This document shows positions 18,185 to 46,568 of a DNA stretch of 64,000 nucleotides, one piece after another (positions within the stretch are counted from its first letter, which is position 1; each line of letters begins with the position of its first letter). Below the pieces are notes generated by a model that ran no database searches, was not told the origin of the DNA, and saw nothing but the letters and a program-made list of their open reading frames with translations. The DNA is from Bilabrum cf. latius (taxonomy: Eukaryota). Location of the stretch: assembly GCA_965178125.1 (NCBI GenBank), contig OZ237737.1, positions 744,001-808,000 of the forward strand, given 5' to 3'. A program made the translations under genes and the position numbers.

Positions 18185-18483
18185 GCTGTGGCCATGCCCC
18201 TCGTGCCCGGTGACCCGGCGGGTTGGAAGTATGTGCTACGCATGATGTGTGTATCGGTAGCCGTCTCCTCCTTTGACAGAGGAGCACTATCCATTCGCAG
18301 GTTCCCCTGGGCCAATCCACCGCCAGATCGACCAGAGTAGTCTAGGCTCTTGCTTAACCACGACCACTGCCATGACTGTGACGACGAGATATTTCACTTG
18401 CAAATCCTGCGTTCAATTCCCACTTTTCTGACCTCTGCGTGTCTAGCCTCAAGCCATCTCAATACATCAGATCATTCTGAGCC

Positions 18484-20907
18484 ATGTCGTCAAGTGGAGC
18501 GCTGGGGTGGCTCGTGGCACCTGTGTCCGCAGACCAATTCTTGCGGGACTATTGGGAGCAAAAGCCGCTGCTCATTAAGCGCAAATCACCGGATTACTAC
18601 GATCATTCCATGTATTTGCCGGGTAGTTTTGCTCTCGATGACGTGTTGCGTGTAGCAAGCGTTCCGGGAGCCCTATACGAACACGATTTGGACGTAACAC
18701 TGTACTCCAATGATCGCGACAAGCGGGACACGCTCAATGACGATGGACTAGTTGACACAGACCGGATTAAGAAACTCATGGATTCGAAGCTATGTTCGGT
18801 GCGGCTGCGCTGCCCACAAGCAAAGGATGGCCGCGTATTCCGGCTGCTCGAGCTGCTGGAACGCAGCTTTGGAACATACGTCGGCTGTAACGTGTACTGC
18901 ACGCCCGCGAATTCCTAGGGCTTTGCGCCCCACTATGATGATATTGAAGCATTCATACTGTAGACTATGGGCTGCAAGCGGTGGCGCGTGTATCCCCCGC
19001 GCGGCAACGGTGGTCAGGGCGGTATTCTTCCGCGGCATTCGAGCCGGGACTACAAGTAGGCAGAGGCGGGCCCGCCCGTCCTCGAATGCATCCTGGAACC
19101 CGGGGATCTGCTGTACATCCCACGGGGCTGGGTGCACCAGGCAGTCGCCGTGCCACCGGGCACAGCTCTGGAAGCCTCGCGGCCCCTCAAAGAGGCCAGG
19201 CTGCAGGCTCCAGGAGGCGCTGGTGCCGCGCCGACAGGGGGCAGCGGTACCACTGGCAGCGACGGGAGAGTGGATGGAAGGTCCGACGGTGGTGCTGAAA
19301 TTGCAACGAGGCCCCCACCCTCCGTGCACCTAACCGTGAGCGCGGGGCTGCACATGACGTGGCACGACTTTTTGCAGGAGGCCGTGCACGGGACACTGGC
19401 TAGGATGGCAGGGGATGTGGGCGAGGACGGGGACGCAGGGGCGGAGGGCAGTGGAGACGGAGCAGACGATGATGATGATGTGGAGGGCGGGGGCATTGCA
19501 GGCGATGACGAGGATGAGGAACTCGCAGTGGCGATGCGGCGGACTCTGCCAGCTGATTTCCTCAGGTGCACAGGTGTCATATGGCAGGAGGACGAAGAAG
19601 ATGAGGATGAGGACGAGCAGGAAAGCTTGGGCAATGGTGATGAAGGTGATGCAGAAGATGCATCCAGCGGTGCTCTTGAGAGCAAGGCGAAAGAGACTGG
19701 CTCCTAGCAGGACGGTGCAGTTGACTGGTTCGGTGGCAGTGGCAGCAGCTGGGAGGGTGCCAGCGCCAGCGCGGGTGCTGCCTGGAGCGGGCAGGGCGGC
19801 AAAGCAGAGGCCAGCTCCTCCGTTGGTGCCAATGATTGGTTCACCGGGACGGATTCCAAGCAGGAGCAGAAGCAAGCCTCGGATAGTACCGGTGCGGCGC
19901 AGGGGGGCGCGGAGTCGGACAGTGGTCCCACGTGGGCCGTGCAATTGGGCGAGGCGCAAGGCGGCGGTGACCTGGGAGACAAGCGGGGAAGGGAAGCAAA
20001 GGGGGTCACCGGTCTGGCTGACTCCATGGTCGTGTGGGGGGTGGGTACCTCGGTTGCAGGACAGGGAAGGGGACAGGGACAGGTTGGAGCAGTGGATGAG
20101 AGAGAGGCGGCCAGGACGGTGTCGCTGCCAGCCACGGAGGCAGGTTTGGCCAGGGCACAAAGAGCCGTTGAACTTGTGCAGCGTGCGAGCGAGGCTTTGT
20201 GTCCCCCGGCCGGCCCAGCCCACGGGGGACTCGACGACGAGGCCGACGGGAGCCGGTCCTCCGCGGGGTCCTCCGGCTCCAGCTCTGCCGGTGGCGAGCC
20301 CCGGCCTGTGCCTGATAGCTACGCGGCCGTACGTGGACTGCGGCGCCGGCTGCTGCTGGAGCATGGCAGCGGTTTCCTGCAGGAGTTTGCTCGCCGGCTG
20401 TGCGAGCCCTCGGTGGCGGACTACGCCTTCGACCGCATGGGGGCGAGGCACATGTCGGAGAGGCTGCCGCCCCCAGAGGTGGCCCCGGCGGACGAGGGCA
20501 AACCGGAAGTACCTAGTGCCGGTGGTCTGGAGGCGGGCTCCCCATCTAAGGGCTGCCCCGCAGTGCCGAAGGAGTGGAAGGGGCAGCTGGTGCGACTGCG
20601 GTTCCCCAGGCACACGCACATGTCGGTGCAAGGGGGCATTTGCGTGGTGCAGCACGCCGCGTCCAACACGAGGAGGTTTAAGGAGGCTGGGGCAGAGGCT
20701 GGGCTGATCGAGCTTTCCATGGAGGCGGCTCCAGCCGTGGAGTTGCTGGTCAAGTCCTGGCCGGCCTGGCTGAGCCCCGCTGACCTTCCCGTGCTTGACG
20801 GCAGCCCGGAGGAGTCTGCAACGAGAGGTGCGCCTGATGCCGCAGTGGTTGATGCCTTGGAGGCGCTGTGCTCCGCCCGGCTCGTTGAGTTCCTGGAAAC
20901 CAAATGA
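18484..20907 (+). CDS. RIOX1: JmjC ribosomal oxygenase, NO66/RIOX1-MINA53 family (about 807 aa with low-complexity insertions)
   Basis: [70 protein letters not shown]; HxD...H iron ligands intact. TAG at 18916, 18961, 19057 and 19705; TGA 20905-20907. Confidence 0.88.
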
Positions 20908-21031
20908 CCCTTTGCCTCGACGAAGATTCGTTCGGCCTTCCGGAAGCCGGAAGCGAGCGATTCGCGAAGGTTCGTTACCGAAGGTGCGCACGTCGCTTCG
21001 CACAAGAGCAAGTAAGCGCACTTTGGCGACT

Positions 21032-22955
21032 ATGGCAGCAGCATCGGGATCAGGGGCAAGCGCATTCGAAGGCACTGTGTCTAAACCATGGACCCTGAAG
21101 GAATGGACAGAACTTCAAGGACATGCCGCTGAAATTGAGCCCTTGCACCTCCGCGATCTTGTACGTGTGAGGTGCTTCTCAGAACATTCGGATTCACTTT
21201 CTATGGCACCGGTATTCCGACCTCGATACTTCGCGAGATCCTTAAACTGTGTCAAATTGCCCTTTTGTCGATTTGCAGGACGAAAAGCGGTGCGCCTAGC
21301 TCCGTGCAGAAGCGCCCGGCTTTGTTGTGGACTACTCTCGCCAGCGAGTGACCACCGACACCATGAGCAAATTGTTTGCCTTCGCCAAAGCAGCGGGGCT
21401 CCAGGAAAAGATCAAGGCTATGGCAGAGGGCAAGAAGATAAACGTGACTGAGAACCGCGCCGTGATGCACATGGCCCTCCGGGCACCGAAGTCCAAATTG
21501 GGCGCTTTCAAGGTGGATGGCAACGATGTCGTCGCCGACGTGCACTCCGTGCTCGACCGAATCAAGTCTTTTTCCGAGGACCTGCGCTCAGGCAAGTGGG
21601 TGGGCGCCACGGGCAAGCCGATCAAAAACGTCATCTCGATCGGAATCGGAGGCTCGTACCTCGGCCCCGAGTTCGTGTTCGAGGCGCTCCGCCGGCAGCC
21701 CGAGTGCGCGGGCGCAGCAAAGGGCCGCACCCTGCGATTCTTGGCAAACGTGGACCCAGTGGACGTGGAACGCGCCACGGAGGGCCTGGACCCCGAGGAG
21801 ACCATGGTGGTGGTCGTGTCCAAGACCTTCACCACGGCCGAGACTATGCTCAACGCGAGGACAATGCGGTCCTGGCTGCTTGCCGGCATGGGCGAGGGCA
21901 AGGACGAGGCAGACGTCATCGCGAAGCACTACGTGGCGGTGTCCTCCAGCGTAGACAAGGCGACCGCCTTCGGGGTCAAGGAGGAGAACGTGTTCGGGTT
22001 CTGGGACTGGGTGGGGGGCAGGTACTCCGTGTGCTCCGCCGTGGGGGTACTCACCCTGTCACTGCAGTACGGCTTCGACCAGATGCGGAACTTCCTGGAC
22101 GGCGCCGCGCAGATGGACGAGCACTTTATGACGGCGGCTCCCGAGTCCAACCTGCCGGTGCTGCTGGGGCTGCTGGGCGTGTGGAACTCCACCTTTTAGG
22201 GGCATGGATCGAGGGCGCTCCTGCCCTACTCTCAGGCGCTGCTTCGGTTCGCGGCTCACATCCAGCAGGTCGACATGGAGTCCAACGGGAAGAGGGTGGC
22301 GGTCGACGGCACGGAGCTGCCGTTCGACGCGGGCGAGGTGGACTTTGGTGAGCCAGGGACCAACGGGCAGCACTCCTTCTACCAGCTCGTGCACTAGGGC
22401 CGCACGGTCCCTGCCGATTTCCTCGGCTTCTGCGAGCCCCAGACGGATCGTCTCGGGGAGGGCGAGCCGGTGAGCAACCACGACGAGCTGATGAGCAACT
22501 TTTTCGCGCAGCCCGACGCGCTGGCCAGGGGCAAGTCTGCGGAGGACCTCGAGAAGGAGGGCGTCTCGGCAGAGCTGATCCCACACAAGACGTTCCCGGG
22601 AAACCGTCCCTCCACGTCGATCCTGATGGACCGCCTGGATGCCTTCTCCTGCGGGCAGCTGCTTGCGCTGTACGAGCATCGCACTGCGGTGCAGGGGTTC
22701 CTCTGGGGCATCCCCAGCTTTGACCAGTGGGGAGTGGAGCTGGGCAAGGTGCTGGCCAAGCAGGTCCGCGGCACCATCCAGGGAGCCAGGTCGGCCGCAT
22801 CCGGTAAGGAAGGTGAGGGAGCTGCAGCCGCGGTGGATGCGACGGTGAAGGAGGGCGGATACAACCCGTCCACGCAGTCGCTGCTAGGGAGGTACCTCAG
22901 GTCGAGGCTCGCGGGGGGGGCGGCGGCGGGGGCTGCCGCTGGCGGTGGCAAGTGA
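21032..22955 (+). CDS. GPI: Glucose-6-phosphate isomerase (cytosolic type)
   Basis: HLRDL, intron about 21167..21278, [103 protein letters not shown] at 21297, 22197 and 22395; TGA 22953-22955. Confidence 0.97.
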
Positions 22956-23079
22956 ACGGATTTATGTATGCGGAGTCTCCTTGTGGGTATGCCCAATTTT
23001 ACGAAGAAAATGGCTTGATCTACCTCTGTTTTTGTGACTGGCACAGCTGCATGCACCCACGTGAACGAGAGCCCAGAAT

Positions 23080-39900: not shown

Positions 39901-42900
39901 GGGTTCCGATGGCGGTTGCGACCGGGAAGGTGCGACCAAGCCAACGGATTGCTTGCGATGACGCGCATACCCTCTCTGTGTTCAGGAGAGGGGCGGAGAT
40001 TGGGTAATTTTTGAAGAAAGTTCCTGCTCCGTTCATTTAACATGAACAGCGCCGGTAGCCATCGGATCGACCCGGCGGCGCGCGGGGCAGCAGGCAGCGC
40101 CAGGGTGATCGCCGCAGCTGCAGTGTTCGCTCGCGCGGTAGGCCAACCTGCGGTCACGTTGGCCGATTTAGCTACTCGATATGGTATGAATGATGCTGTG
40201 TTCTCGGATTTCATTGCTCGTCTCAACGTGCAGCGCGACACCATGGCACCTCGCGATCCCGATCTTCGACGTTCACACGATGCGGGGTTCCTGTGCTACT
40301 TGCTCGACAGGTACTCATCAAAGCAGTCCTTTACGGCATCACGGTCCATTAATGCTGTCAAGAGCACCGCTCTCGCCAGGTTCGTGTCAAATGGGACGCT
40401 AACGACTCTCGGTGCACGGCTGCTTCTGCCGGCGTCGCCGAGCTCTCAGAGATTGGAGTACAAGCCCGATATCGAAACCACGGAAGACTGGAATGTGTTC
40501 TACTTTGATGCCCCTAATATCTCCTCTGTCTCTGGTGAGATGACGTCCAAGCTTTCTAGTGCCAGACTTCTGGGCATGGAATCGACGCAGTGGGGCTACG
40601 CACGTAGCTAGCGAGCTATTCCATACGAGGACCAACGCAGTTTGCTGTCCACAAGACGCTCCAAGGCACCTCAAGCGCAACATTGGAGGTAGCTGCAAAC
40701 GGCAGAAGGGGCAAGTGCACGCACACCGTGGTATCTCGAGTACCAGGATAGGTTGCGCGATGCTCGACACAATGCGAGCACTCCAGACCACGTCGTTCGT
40801 GTGAATGCGATGGAAGCAGTCATCGTGATTGAGGGGTTCAATTTTGGCAGTAGAGAGAACGATGTGACCATCACCATCGGTGGGCAAAATTGCGGTCCAG
40901 TCGACGACACTCCATTGTGGAAAATCACCGGAGACACGCCGTTCCTCGAGTGCCAAGTAGGGGGCCTAGTCGTTGGTCATCATTAGGTAGAAATCACAGT
41001 TGCAAACCAAGAGGTTGTGATTCCACCGGGAGAGTCTGGACTTTTCGCTGAGTGTCCAAAGAATTTTTTCGCAACGGAAGAGGGTGTGCACGATTGCATC
41101 CCGTGTCCGAAGTGTACGACTCCAACTTGTGAAGCAAATGGCCTGACCGACGACGAAGCCAGCTTCTGCGACGGAGGGACAACTGCGCCCTATTCGAGGG
41201 CGAAGTTCTGGTTGTACAATGGCACAAACAGAATTAATACCACAAGTACCCGAGGCTTCGCTCTCGACGTGTGTCTTCCAGTATTGGAGCAGCTGAATCC
41301 TTGCCTGCCAGACAACGAATGCAAGGCAGGCTACGTCCAAGAGAATGCCTGCAGCGTCTGCATGCCTGGGTTCCAGCGAGATATTATTGAGAAAACTTGT
41401 GTTAAATGCCCAGAATAGCCTATTCTCTTCATGATCTTGCTGCTTGGGGCGGCTCTGATCGTCGGTGTTCTCCTGTTTGCTCTGTACCGTGTGTCGCCAA
41501 GCGTCGCGGCAGCATCGGTGGCTCTCGATTTTTTCCGTGAGTATATGACTAGTTTGTGCTTATCCTATTTTGCTACAGATGTGAATGCCCTTTTGGTCCC
41601 AATATGTGTCTCTCTTTGCCCCGCAGAAACTCTGAGTGTGATAGGCTCCCTGCCATTGAGCTACCCTCCTGCGCTGGCCGCACTGTTCTAGTATGCCCAG
41701 GCATCTGCCTCGAACGTAGACGCAGCCTCTCCGAGCTGTGCTGCAGCCAATTTCGGGTACATCGAGGCCTGGATTTTTAGTATGAGTCTGCCTGCCTTAG
41801 TACCGGTATGTATTATTGTCGCAAATCTGGTTGTGGTAGCGTACAAGCTTGCTTGCAGGACAAGTGCTGGTGATTAGAGGTCTCTGTGGAAGCACGCTGA
41901 CGCTGGCTTTGGTTTCATCATCTTAGCGTGGCTATTTTTGTACATCCTTGTGGTGAGCAAGGGATTTGAGATTCAGCAGTGCAGAGAGACAGGGGACGGT
42001 CCCGTTCTTCGCGCTGATCCTGAAATCCCGTGCGGAGACGAGCGACACAATGCCTTCGTGTTTGCTGCTAACGTGCTGCTCCTTCTCTATGGAATCGGGA
42101 TTCCGCTGCTGTTTGGCGTCTTGTTGTGGCACTATGGTCCTGCGATTTAGTACGACCAGGCCCTCAGAGAGCGTGGGTTGGCAGGCTCGAGGGACACGAA
42201 CGCTTTCTTTAACCTCGGCAAGCGCTTGCGGCGGCTGTATTTCAAGTACAGAGCCGACGCGTACTACTGGTCTGAGCTTATTTTACTACGCAAGGCTGTA
42301 CTTGTGGTGATTGCGGCTCAGCTGCTTGAGAAGCCGCTGCTAGCAGCGTCCTCAATTCTTACGTCACTCTTTGTTGCGTACACGCTGCAGCTAGTGTACT
42401 AGCCTTACAGGAGCCACACTCAAGAAAAAGCGAAGCAAGACGCTCAGAAGGCGAAAGAGACACAAAAACAGCTTGAGGCTGCTGTTCTGGCCACGGGCAA
42501 GGTGTCTGCAGGCCAAGCCGCCCGAGTCGTCGCGAGTGCAGTAGCACGAATCGGTGAGGGGTCTGCTTCGCCGATCCTGGAGTAGGATGGCAAAGGGAAT
42601 GGGACAGGTGCTGCTGGGGCTACTTCCGACACAGAGGGCACAAGTGGGAAGAGTGGGAAAGCTCGTCGGGCAGTTCTGTTTGGGCAGGGCTCTGGCAAAG
42701 GTGGTAAGGGTGCCTCTGCGCTTGGCAGAGGAGGAAGCGGTTCCGGCGCAATGAGGATGGCTTCATCTCAACTTACCTCGGGGAGGAGCAGGCATGGGAT
42801 CAGTGAACTTGCCGCTCTAAAGGGTAGCGCGATGGAGGCACTGGCAGTTGCGTCGCCACTGCACGGTACCCTGCTCAAGAGATCAGCCGTGCGCTCCCGT

Positions 42901-45900
42901 GTCGACGATGAAGACTTCGCAGGGATCATGGCATCTGACCAACGATGGTCAACCAAGAGCATCATGCACAATTCCCGGGCCCGGCAAGAGAGGGAGCGAC
43001 GAGCGTAGGCAGCTAGCCTTGGCCGCACGTTGGCACGGTCAACCTTGGTTTCACATGAAAGCGGTGCACCTAGCAATCAGTCGAATGGTGCCTTCCCGAC
43101 CCTTGCTGAGCAGCATGCACGCTTTGCAGAAGCAAACGAAAGCAAGGACAGCCCAGTATCGGTGTCTTCGAGGAACCCGCTGGTTCGCGCCGCTGATGCA
43201 GCTGCCCCAAGCGCCTCTGCTACCGCTAGCAGGAGTCCACCACTGGGAGATTCCGTGGCGCCCACACCTCCTCCTGGTGTCGCAATCGTCCCGAGCTCAG
43301 GTTATTAGAAGAAAAGGTCTAAGTCCAAGAAAGACAGGCCCGCCTTCATCCCGGACCCGATCCGTGACTCTGTGTGCTGCGGCGTTCCAGGCTGCGCAGG
43401 CTGGACTCTCTGGTTCTGCTTCTGTTGTGGCTTCCTCTGTATGTGCGGTGACCGAAACAAGAGCAAGGTTAAACTCCGCATCGAGGCAAGGAGTGGCGGT
43501 GAAGCCAAGATCAAGACCAAGATCATTGCTGACATGAATACTCTCGAGGTGAGGTATTGCCCACCGTGCTGATACATCGGCGTGCGCATATGCAGAAACA
43601 TTGCATCCTTGTATTTCCGCGTGCTGTTGCTTTTTTACATACTTCGCAGGCTACTGCCCTCTTCTGTTCGGTTCTCGTGCTACTGAGCGGGATCATCTTT
43701 GCCGCAGCTGATGCTGCTGGTGAAATTGAGGTGAGTCTGAGCCCTTCCGTATCGTGATTGCCCGGTTGTACTTGGCAGGAATGGATCATTTGACATTGAT
43801 ACGATAAACTCAACTTTCATGCCTTGCAGAGTGGAAATCAGCGAACGATGCTGGAGTACATGGTGTTCTCGATCGTCATGATGGCGACTGGGTACTGCGT
43901 GCTCGCGGTCATTTGGGAGCTGCAAGAAAGTGTGAAGTACTACCTGGCCAGCTGCAAGACACGATATGGTGCGGCAAGCATTGCAAGGACACGTCAAAAA
44001 GCGATTGACACCGCGACATCCAATATGGTACAGCGTGCAAGGGCTGCCCGGCACAGGCGCCAGGCCGAGATTTAGAGGCAGAGCAACCCGTTGATGGCCT
44101 CATTCCCTGCGCCTGGCTCCGACAGATCCTTAAATGGTGACGGTGAGGCAGGTGCGGCATCTTGCTGTGGCTCTTTGCTAGGTACCTGTTGCCCTTGCTG
44201 GTATGATTCCTAGCAGAGTATACAGAGTGGACGCGGTGCTCCCGGGGCCGGCAGCCCTCGAACTCAGTTCGGAGGTGCTAACCCAATGATGGCCGCGAGG
44301 TCCGCGTAGTAGTCTGATGCAGCGGCAACTGGTCGCGCTGCAGCTCGTCGAGGCGGTGTCTCACTCTTGCGAACTCGAACTATGTCGTCTGGCTCTGATG
44401 ATGGAGATCTGGCAAATGGTAGCTCACGCTCTATCGGTGAAGAGAGCAGCAGCCCGAAAGGAAGCGGACCTGGCGGGGCCACCGCCTAGAAGAAGAAGAA
44501 GCGAACTCATCATGACTCTATGGCTGGCGGACTCTGGACCGGGGAGGTGAAGGGAGTGCTTCTACAGGTGCCGCATGATGTAGCTGGGCAGCAGGACTAG
44601 GCTGTTGTGGACTACGACGAAGCGACTAGACGCAGAACTGCCATGATTCAGGTGGCCAATAAGGAGGCTAGGAAGCTTCGTAAGAAGAATTTTGGCCTGC
44701 TGACGCTCCTGGGCGGTTCTCAGAGTGGTCGTGGCGTTGGGGCCAGACAATCGATCAATGCAAACGCTGACAGCGATGACTTCGACGACGACGACACATC
44801 TTCTTCCGATGACGAGGCCTAGTCAACTGACGAGGACGACAACGGGCCGGATCCCTACGAGCCTGGCCTCTCAACGGAAGAGAGACTGTCCAGGGCCCGC
44901 GCAATTGCTGCCCGCCGTGAGGAGAGGGCAGAGCGACGCAAGCAGAGGGTCGCAAAGGGTAGCAAGAAGGTCGGCAAGAGTGGGAATGGCAAGAAGAAGG
45001 AGAAGAAGAAGAAGAAGAAGATCAAAGACAAGATCAAGGTTGCCCATCACCAACTGTCGGTTCACTTTGGACAGGCTTGGGGGCTCAGTGTGCCGGCAGG
45101 CCAAGAGATTTCCATCACGCTCAAGGTGGATACCACGACGGTCAAGACCAAACTTCCTTACAAGCCTCACGTTGAGACGCGCCTAAAGGAAATGACGCTG
45201 CCAATATTCAACCCGAGCAGAGGTGGTGACGTACTGCATGGCAGCATCAAGGTGAAAGGTATGTTCACCAGCACGGTGCTCGGCACTTTCCGCTGCCCAG
45301 TTGCTGAAATGCCTCGAGGCAAGCGCAAGGAGCGAACCTTCACGTTGCATGACAGCAGTGACAACGTCAGTGGTCAGATCAGTCTGTATCTGCGGCTCTA
45401 GGCATCGGCGGGGGTGCATGTGGACAACTGGGTCGAGCTGGGCCTGGGAACCAGGGACCTGAGTCAAATTCAGACGCCTCCACCCAGCGCCGCCCCAATG
45501 GGCCGGATCGCAAGAAAATCCATTATGCACAAGCGTAGGCAGACGCGCATTGGTCAAGTGGGCTTGCTCGAAGCTGCCCGGGAGGCACAGCAGCAGAGGT
45601 CGCGCAATCGGAAGAAGCGGCGCAGCGGTGACGACGACAGCGACTCCAGCTCAGGCAGCGAGGCAGCTACGAGCAAAAGCAAGGGCAAGCGCGATGAGCA
45701 TGACGAGGAGGATGGACGCGATTATGACACTGGAGACGTCTGGTTGGAGATGCACCCGATATCGGTGGACAGCCCGCTAAAGGCCGCAAGGAGGGCCTCA
45801 AGCACGCGCTCCGGGCTGTACGCTGCGTCAAGCAGCCCGAGGAAACGACAAAAGGCCCAAGTTCTTGGGACGGCAAAGAGCGCGCGACAGCTCAACACCG

Positions 45901-46568
45901 GGGGCGATATGTCCATGTAGCGGAAGCTTCAAATCAGAGAGGCTTAGCGACGCCGAACCATGAAGGCTATGCGGCGAGCCTCCGCATTCTAGAACCAGGC
46001 CATCGCTGCGCTTGGCATGCCCATGGGTCCACAAGCAGGTGACGTAGCCAGTACGTCTGAGATTGACGGCGCCAGCAAGCTCAAGGCTACCGATCAAAGC
46101 CTAGCGAAGAGCAAGGCTGCTGATAGGCTGGCTGCGATTGGGACTGGACGGGCAGGCCGACACCACAAGGAAGCAGATCCTGTCCGCGGCGAGGCCGTGC
46201 GTAACCCTCTTGCTATCGGTGCGGCGAAGGCGCAAGCTGGTGGTGGCGAGGGCGACGGTGGGGATGCGAATCCGCTGGCGGGATTGTCGCTGGCGGACGT
46301 CTTTCGCCCGGTCGATCAGACTTCGGACCAGGTAATGCGTCCGAAGACCAATCCTCTATTCGCCACCTCTGCTACTCGTTCGCAAAAATCATCCTCAGCA
46401 CCATCAACTGAGAATCTAGGTGAGTCTAGCGGCGGTACAGCTGAATAGATACGGCGGGTATCGTCCTTGTCTGGCTTCAGAACTGACACGCGTCCTGAAT
46501 TGCTGCGCGGCCGAGGCAGGCGATCCAGGCAACAGCGAGCTTCGCGCGCTGCTTCTGAAGAAATTTGA
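27935..46568 (+). CDS. Giant nonagonal-type cadherin A: signal peptide, cadherin repeats, IPT/TIG repeats, Cys-rich region, 9 TM, C2-like domain (about 6000 aa)
   Basis: Signal peptide MRFLTVFALLLCSHVA. One uninterrupted frame 28157..39929 if TAG is sense. Cadherin Ca-binding motifs (xEN, DxD, DFE/DYE, DVNEAP), IPT motifs (GG..V.I.G.NFG), and nine hydrophobic segments from 41420 to 43915. Introns 41537..41626, 43549..43649 and 43731..43829, plus a 5' intron from 27985 and an unresolved junction near 39930-40090. About 59 TAG; TGA 46566-46568. Confidence 0.85.
28481..30272 (+). repeat. Intragenic tandem repeat, 5 x 354 bp, each unit one cadherin domain (118 aa)
   Basis: gtttcgaatgtgaacgaagctcc recurs at 28481, 28835, 29189, 29543, 29897 and 30251. 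The only differences I saw between units are at up to 3 positions in the EDGGGL(F/L)D codons. Confidence 0.97.
30596..33198 (+). repeat. Dispersed intragenic duplication of about 750 bp (30596..31344 and 32450..33198; two cadherin domains)
   Basis: Both copies begin gtcatcgatgtgaacgaagcacccttc and end gacgcgaacga, offset 1854 bp (a multiple of 3). Differences are few and mostly synonymous (MAVLEN/MAVPEN, DEDTT/DEDAT). Confidence 0.95.

Follow-up and report, generated by a model that had tools for sequence, protein, structure and literature searches.

The NO66/RIOX1 gene and the meaning of its TAG codons

We analysed a 64-kb stretch of the Bilabrum cf. latius genome (the window, C3:744001-808000 of a 48.6-Mb, 111-contig assembly; positions are those of the window unless a contig is named), in which a gene for the JmjC ribosomal oxygenase NO66/RIOX1 contains in-frame TAG codons (Table 1). 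The evidence from this gene and from across the genome is that UAG is very probably a glutamine codon in the nuclear code. With TAG read as sense, the gene forms a single 808-codon frame with TAG at codons X145, X160, X192 and X408. Its product matches the Pfam family JmjC_2 (E 8.9e-25) and is nearer to NO66 than to MINA, the match to human NO66 structures having an E value of 1.1e-45 and that to MINA being weaker (8e-39). The C-terminal winged-helix domain RIOX1_C_WH is matched weakly, with 19.8 bits against a cut-off of 27.

A preliminary description, made from the sequence alone, had translated 18895-18993 on the forward strand, placed the TAGs at 18916 and 18961 at conserved Gln positions flanking the HxD motif and, with the help of an approximate NO66 motif, read both as Gln rather than Leu, Glu, Tyr or Trp. 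Retranslation gave the identical reading, and the approximate motif agrees with the sequence of the human NO66 structure. In an alignment of the 120 best of 538 homologues, the consensus at both columns is Q (119/120 and 120/120), with no other consensus. The invariant HxD residues sit between the two TAGs. Two residues beside the active site are atypical: at 18898 the protein has Cys where 115/120 homologues have Leu, and at 18967 it has Met where 116/120 have Glu. Two TAG sites alone cannot separate recoding from other causes, because a CAG-to-TAG nonsense change, an assembly error or U-to-C editing also yields TAG at Gln columns.

Table 1. Position, strand and main properties of the features described in the text
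Feature	Position	Strand	Remarks
NO66/RIOX1 JmjC ribosomal oxygenase gene	18484..20907	+	807 aa + TGA, intronless, four in-frame TAG (read as Gln)
TAG, read as Gln145	18916..18918	+	column Q 119/120, R 1/120
H150-x-D152, JmjC iron-binding triad	18931..18939	+	H and D each in 120/120 homologues
TAG, read as Gln160	18961..18963	+	column Q 120/120
TAG, read as Gln192	19057..19059	+	column Q 72/120
Distal His218, JmjC triad	19135..19137	+	aligns with the matching His of human NO66
Fourth TAG, codon 408	19705..19707	+	within low-complexity insertion, outside column scoring
tRNA gene, anticodon CUA	G000:C23:907607-907679	-	69.8 bits in Rfam, ranking second among 48 matches
Glucose-6-phosphate isomerase (GPI) gene	21032..22955	+	GT-AG intron 21167-21278, three TAG, TGA end
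Frame with four TAG, CAAX-like tail then TAA	26399..27577	+	TAA-stop example; no Pfam match, weak alone
Cadherin/TIG frame, 3965 codons	28064..39961	+	36 TAG, zero internal TAA/TGA
Cadherin/TIG frame, >5712 codons	46861..63999	-	21 TAG, zero internal TAA/TGA; open at window end

Codons were then scored genome-wide against aligned paralogues (19 dynein, 30 DEAD, 30 Ras and 30 kinesin loci) and outside homologues (120 for NO66, 150 for GPI and 118 for eRF1). For the 148 TAG sites, drawn from seven families, the log-odds sum to +117.8 for Q, followed by -107.4 for E, -135.5 for R, -234.4 for L, -293.9 for Y and -319.0 for W, so that all four residues set aside in the preliminary description score negatively. 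The same scoring assigned 61/61 sense codons correctly, and the top-ranked residues for TAG come in the same order as those for CAG and CAA. Among cells with a conserved residue, TAG occupies 36/313 for Gln, 0/261 for Tyr, 1/1366 for Leu, 3/557 for Glu, 0/335 for Lys and 0/309 for Trp. At a consensus of at least 60%, Gln columns hold 42 of 54 TAGs, 229 of 316 CAGs and 32 of 46 CAAs. Chance placement of TAGs at Gln columns is excluded by this genome-wide test.

TAG is also widespread. In a 264-kb sample (the window together with 200 kb of C1 and C2), a coding-score filter retained 27 of 398 long frames; 21 of these 27 coding-like frames contain an in-frame TAG, and TAG makes up 71 of their 732 Gln codons (9.7%). 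By hand count, the 398 Pfam matches to dynein, DEAD, Ras, proteasome, kinesin and kinase families (the last from the match table alone) enclose about 243 TAG, 4 TAA and 13 TGA.

Several observations weigh against so simple an assignment. Non-Gln columns hold 12 of the 54 TAGs at the 60% threshold (CAG 87/316) and 5 of 25 at 80% (CAG 17/154). The TAG at 22197 (codon 352) of GPI falls in a Leu column (84/148) where Q is rare, and codon 69 of the eRF1 gene is a TAG in a column that is Leu in 89 and Q in 6 of 95 homologues. There are, moreover, the 13 TGA and 4 TAA inside Pfam matches, of which two TGA were inspected, both of them apparently intronic. Weighing these points together, we assign a probability of roughly 0.94 to a nuclear code in which UAG specifies Gln and UAA and UGA are stops. 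UAG would then be a full sense codon for glutamine alongside CAA and CAG, with UGA as the main and UAA as a minor stop.

A tRNA(CUA) gene and its possible origin

One tRNA gene with a CUA anticodon was found, in an Rfam tRNA search that scored 63 of 780 candidates. It folds into a perfect cloverleaf (z -2.68) and has a T6 run just 3' of it. Searches with two anticodon patterns detected no tRNA(UUA), and together with a search of the DNA they detected no second copy; intron-bearing tRNAs would escape the patterns. The tRNA-Pyl label given by ARAGORN was assigned from the anticodon alone and was rejected; the first pair is C1-G72, not G1-C72 (PMC9976931). C34 is unable to pair with the A in UAA, so the tRNA would read UAG only, and it would be charged with Gln by the ordinary glutaminyl-tRNA synthetase (GlnRS). 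The GlnRS of this genome aligns over its full length with the human and yeast enzymes, an alignment in which no anticodon-domain change was singled out.

To place this tRNA among the others, stem pairs were compared in the 22 of 24 tRNAs that could be sliced (two could not), giving 226 pairs of different isotype. The tRNA(CUA) and tRNA-Tyr(GUA) share 10 of 12 stem pairs (6/7 in the acceptor and 4/5 in the anticodon stem) and rank first of the 226; the next best pair shares 8/12, the commonest values are 3-4, and tRNA(CUA) with tRNA-Gln(CUG) reaches 6/12. Among the 22 tRNAs, C1-G72 is exclusive to tRNA(CUA) and tRNA-Tyr. The variable loop has 5 nt as in Tyr, against 4 nt in the Gln tRNAs. The D-stem behaves differently, agreeing at 8/8 positions with Gln(UUG), at 7/8 with Glu and Trp and at 3/8 with Tyr, and position 73 has the G of Gln(UUG) in place of the A of Tyr. 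In the acceptor, tRNA(CUA) has 2 of 14 letters in common with Gln(UUG).

A73 and C1-G72 are described as determinants of eukaryotic tRNA-Tyr (PMC9976931); of the Tyr identity bases, A73 and G34 are absent from tRNA(CUA), which has G73 and C34 instead. Of the Gln set, taken here from E. coli since the table of the review gives no eukaryotic one, G73, G2-C71, G10, a pyrimidine at 34, U35 and A37 are present; G73, G2-C71, G10, U35 and A37 are listed as members of E. coli's tRNA-Gln set in PMC1483225. Amber tRNAs that shift to Gln charging, including tRNA-Lys A73G, have been described (PMC9976931, PMC1483225).

A route that would account for these features begins with a copy of tRNA-Tyr(GUA) in which G34 changed to C, giving an amber-reading tRNA. 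Tyr identity would then have been lost through A73 to G, and Gln-type features (G73, G2-C71 and a D-stem identical to that of Gln(UUG)) gained, whether through point changes or by recombining with a Gln tRNA. A precedent for such a shift to Gln is reportedly the E. coli su3 tRNA-Tyr A73G. Since TAG aligns as Gln and never as Tyr, a Tyr-derived amber tRNA would have to have been captured by GlnRS. On the stem, loop and identity comparisons, descent from tRNA-Tyr(GUA) with capture by GlnRS seems probable, and the tRNA is possibly a chimera. Three points weigh against this account of a Tyr-derived tRNA charged with Gln. Whole-length identity does not favour Tyr, with values of 0.68 for Tyr, 0.68 for Glu and 0.65 for Gln(UUG). 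The tRNA retains the eukaryotic Tyr identity elements C1-G72 and U35. It also lacks the E. coli Gln elements U1-A72, G3-C70, G36 and U38, having C1-G72, C3-G70, A36 and C38 at those sites; the genome's own Gln tRNAs likewise have C3-G70 and are without U1-A72 and U38.

The same code could have arisen with another tRNA history, namely descent from a Gln tRNA (or one of Glu or Trp type) with the Tyr-like stems produced by convergence or gene conversion. The D-stem matches to Gln(UUG), Glu and Trp and the G73 shared with Gln(UUG) would fit such descent, and an origin from tRNA-Gln(CUG) is what Panek et al. expected (PMC5304391). Likeness of the D-stem to Gln(UUG) is, however, weak evidence, because this stem is common to several isotypes here. 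The 6/12 stem pairs with Gln(CUG) and the 2/14 acceptor letters with Gln(UUG) compare poorly with the 10/12 pairs with Tyr, and tRNA(CUA) resembles Tyr, and neither Gln tRNA, in its C1-G72 pair and its variable loop of 5 nt. Descent from a Gln-type tRNA is thus a tentative alternative, which we regard as the less probable history. As a separate candidate parent, tRNA-Trp, one change away from CCA, was rejected, with only 6/14 acceptor and 4/10 anticodon-stem letters matching.

Retention of C1-G72 and U35, both eukaryotic Tyr determinants (PMC9976931), also raises the question whether UAG has two meanings, with Gln as the main one and Tyr as a lesser one, through charging of the Tyr-like tRNA by the tyrosyl enzyme (TyrRS). 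Against this, TAG occurs in none of the 261 conserved-Tyr cells, Tyr is among the worst residues by log-odds, the critical determinant A73 is replaced by G, and invariant Gln positions tolerate TAG. Such ambiguity is improbable.

Two further features of the tRNA set were seen. Several of the CAT-anticodon tRNAs (L025, L035, L039, L047-L049) have a body like that of tRNA-Pro(TGG), with 6/7 acceptor pairs; they differ from the elongator Met tRNA (L033), and three have T37. These may be tRNA-like repeats or may mark a second case of tRNA remoulding. The anticodon of eukaryotic tRNA-Ile is usually AAT; the two tRNA-Ile genes seen (L011, L044) both have GAT, whereas Ala and Thr use A34.

Termination, eRF1 and the source of the TAG codons

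Gene ends were informative in the Ras family, where 20 of 30 loci have a Cys motif (CC, CXC, CCX or CAAX) directly before TGA (16) or TAA (4); the other 10 are first exons or motif-less and hence uninformative. Thirteen of the 20 motif-ended loci carry an upstream in-frame TAG that has to be read through. TAA also terminates a DEAD helicase and the eRF1 gene. The 27 coding-like frames of the 264-kb sample end in TGA (24/27) or TAA (3/27). The mean coding score is 0.19 after the last TAG (0/19 negative), compared with 0.185 after the last CAG, and -0.32 after a TAA or TGA stop (25/25 negative). Since TAA is a stop here, a codon that the preliminary description did not address, the code would be the rare type in which only UAG means Gln, not the common one in which UAA and UAG (UAR) both do.

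The eRF1 gene (L050:416-2289, on G000:C35) has four exons, whose ends were inferred from GT-AG sites and homology, and encodes 438 residues. In comparison with up to 96 full-length homologues, and in human numbering, the protein carries G29A (shared by 2/87 homologues), N30D (0/87), I35V (0/93), S60V (1/95), F117P (0/96), L126M (9/96) and K130H (0/96). One in-frame TAG, at position 44, aligns with a column that is Q in 89/94 homologues, and the TAG at 69 produces L69Q; both lie in the stop-recognition domain. With these two TAGs in its gene, an eRF1 still able to terminate at UAG would truncate itself during synthesis, possibly a feedback or a ratchet.

The changes beside the GTS loop and NIKS (G29A, N30D, I35V, S60V, L69Q and L126M) would lower the affinity of eRF1 for UAG, by a route that would not be the T32G of Iotanema. 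In yeast, L69A increases UAG readthrough (PMC4381064). Arguing in the other direction, the protein retains G31-T32-S33, E55, NIKS, S70 and YxCxxxF, N30A was without effect in yeast (PMC4381064), the TAVNIKS motif is found also in Euplotes eRF1b, where the recoding is different (PMC4695839), and Q69 is present in 6 other eRF1s. On these residues, we lean towards a loss of UAG affinity through changes beside GTS and NIKS and not through T32G, with somewhat less assurance than for the origin of the tRNA.

Conservation of T32 and the other core eRF1 motifs would also suit a context-dependent code of the Condylostoma or Blastocrithidia type, in which UAG is Gln internally and still a stop at some gene ends. 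Few gene ends were sampled (20 in Ras loci and 27 frames), and none of the 18 Gln codons located 11-40 codons from the end is TAG. No TAG-ended gene was seen, however, among those inspected, none of which requires one, although they are a small share of the genome and too few for excluding rare TAG ends. Close to the stop, TAG makes up 2 of the 8 Gln codons within the last 10 codons, and in the Ras locus L247 a TAG stands 11 codons ahead of the stop, 5' of the CAAX motif. A context-dependent code is, for these reasons, very unlikely.

Sequence runs from two other studies, X5 and X6, yielded contigs that lack the GPI intron. Because both skip this intron, the contigs come from spliced RNA; the run records list no RNA, and the splice is what establishes this. 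The X5 contigs span 18434-21166 and 21279-23000, and those of X6 include a piece over 18443-19411, in each case with 0 other letters and with the TAGs kept, in a contig comparison that hides rare variants, including rare edited molecules. A diverged run, X9, shows no difference at 18916-18918 among at least 40 differences, in a comparison of positions before 18961. Among metagenomic eRF1 loci (377 confirmed), the best of 80, L119, is identical to this genome at 552 of 675 nt (82%) and 208 of 225 amino acids, and has TAG opposite this genome's CAG and a terminal TGA opposite TAA. At least one other, related species therefore has this code too. L173 and L176, two remote metagenomic eRF1 loci (55% identity) outside this lineage, have one in-frame TAG opposite Gly, which could reflect another code or an alignment edge.

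These data bear on the causes of TAG that the two NO66 sites left undistinguished. Nonsense change in a pseudogene, assembly error and U-to-C mRNA editing would each place TAG at Gln columns without any recoding, but TAG occurs inside essential genes, among them eRF1, on many contigs with no corresponding TAA or TGA; independent runs and a diverged relative share it; the spliced contigs are unedited at TAG sites; and a cognate tRNA(CUA) gene is present. An absence of recoding is hardly credible. Least probable of all is the UAR=Gln code (NCBI table 6), the commonest stop reassignment among eukaryotes (PMC5304391). Conserved genes that end in TAA (four of the Ras family, eRF1 and the DEAD helicase) refute it, and it is further opposed by the scarcity of TAA relative to TAG inside Pfam matches and by the failure to find a tRNA(UUA) with two anticodon patterns.

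Relatives, comparison with known codes and neighbouring genes

For both NO66 and eRF1 the best named match is Cafeteria roenbergensis (eRF1 68%). In a quick single-gene eRF1 tree, from which the 100%-identical P0124 was left out, this genome, L119 and P0123 group together (100) inside a clade with Cafeteria (SH-aLRT 85). The mitochondrial genome (C111, L292-L295; 38,401 bases, 24% GC) has 22 long frames, all on the same strand and all 22 ending in TAA; it uses code 4 (TGA=Trp), which it shares with Cafeteria and Cafileria along with the atp8-atp1-atp6 order (PMC6723347). A cox1 search gave close matches (94%, 89%), none of them bearing a species name. Probably, then, the organism is a bicosoecid stramenopile in a genus-level lineage of its own, with moderate support for this placement. 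A second 18S gene (L001, G000:C95:6099-7900, on a 17.9-kb contig) has 83% identity with the 1700-nt array of C12 and probably comes from a co-sequenced eukaryote, which we take to be dinoflagellate-like. Standard gene callers cut most long genes of the lineage at TAG, which leaves its proteins fragmentary in databases; the entries for the eRF1 relatives P0123 and P0124, for example, consist of C-terminal pieces only.

Reassignment of UAG alone to Gln is known from Iotanema spirale, Protocruzia tuzeti, Hartmannula sinica and Trochilia petrani (PMC11687900). Iotanema spirale, an unrelated lineage (Fornicata), has the same codon meanings and an eRF1 altered near the GTS loop, but ends its genes mostly in UAA (104 UAA, 15 UGA) where UGA dominates here (16/20, 24/27), and has T32G in eRF1 where T32 is retained here; a tRNA for UAG was not identified there, whereas one tRNA(CUA) gene is present here (PMC5304391). 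The three ciliates have the same code too, with UAG in 78-84% of genes (here in 21/27 long frames) and accounting for 18.5-31.8% of Gln codons (here 9.7%); the dominant stop is UAA in Hartmannula and Trochilia and UGA here, and a suppressor tRNA was not detected in H. sinica or T. petrani, unlike here (PMC11687900).

UAG is likewise uncoupled from UAA in the rhizarian exLh and in phyllopharyngean metagenome-assembled genomes (UAG=Leu) and in the ciliate PL0344 (UAG=Glu, UAA=Lys), with CUA suppressor tRNAs in the ciliates (PMC5304391, PMC11687900, PMC10553269). The ciliate CUA tRNAs resemble the isotype that they deliver, whereas the tRNA here resembles Tyr and the codon is read as Gln. There are also laboratory amber suppressors that come to deliver Gln (tRNA-Trp, tRNA-Lys A73G and yeast tRNA-Tyr variants in E. 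coli; PMC9976931, PMC1483225), in which the CUA anticodon (U35) and G73 shift charging toward GlnRS; they are engineered, use a bacterial enzyme and are often weakly charged, while the present case, if true, would be natural, fixed and genome-wide. For Cafeteria roenbergensis/burkhardae, the genome paper gives a non-standard code for the mitochondrion only (10.1101/751586), and Cafeteria eRF1 is canonical at 29, 30, 35, 60, 69 and 126, the positions altered in this genome. No stramenopile or bicosoecid case of UAG=Gln was found in the literature searched, which lies mostly outside subscription journals, so an earlier report is possible. As far as seen, the code table is already known, and what is new is the supergroup, the UGA-dominant termination and a tRNA with apparent Tyr origin.

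A broader reading, to which we give about even odds, would make this the first stramenopile nuclear code change, shared by a Cafeteria-related clade and arising through a natural Tyr-to-Gln switch in tRNA identity (A73 to G, Gln-type D-arm), with UAG perhaps Tyr before it was Gln, with an eRF1 that lost UAG while keeping T32, and with the lineage as a candidate host of TAG=Gln giant viruses. The host proposal follows from the code and from kinship to the CroV host only. According to PMC13524828, confirmed isolates come from standard-code hosts. A search of the genome for the viral packaging ATPase (Pox_A32) gave no match, and no copy of the tRNA(CUA) core was found in viral contigs; both results are neutral on the link.

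Few codes treat UAG apart from UAA, and for none of the four lineages listed with UAG alone as Gln in the papers cited here is the tRNA in hand. Here one contiguous assembly holds the codon usage, the single CUA tRNA, GlnRS and eRF1 together. This makes testable how an eRF1 may drop UAG while still recognising UAA and UGA, and from what sources new suppressor tRNAs arise. A tRNA derived from Tyr that delivers Gln, if true, would contradict the expected duplication of tRNA-Gln(CUG) and would be a natural counterpart of the laboratory mischarging mutants. A UAG-blind eRF1 with its tRNA could also serve amber-suppression work.

Elsewhere in the window, which includes 200 N and in which no tRNA gene was detected, TAG-as-sense frames reach 1523, 3965 and >5712 codons, each split into pieces by table 11. 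Of the two remaining TAGs of GPI, that at 22395 lies in a column with Q in 132/143 homologues and that at 21297 in a variable column. From the NO66 stop to the GPI start there are 124 bases (20907-21032) and one spliced X5 contig covers both genes, so that their untranslated regions likely overlap. The cadherin/TIG protein on the forward strand has exact internal repeats and may extend through 40015-46568 into membrane segments.

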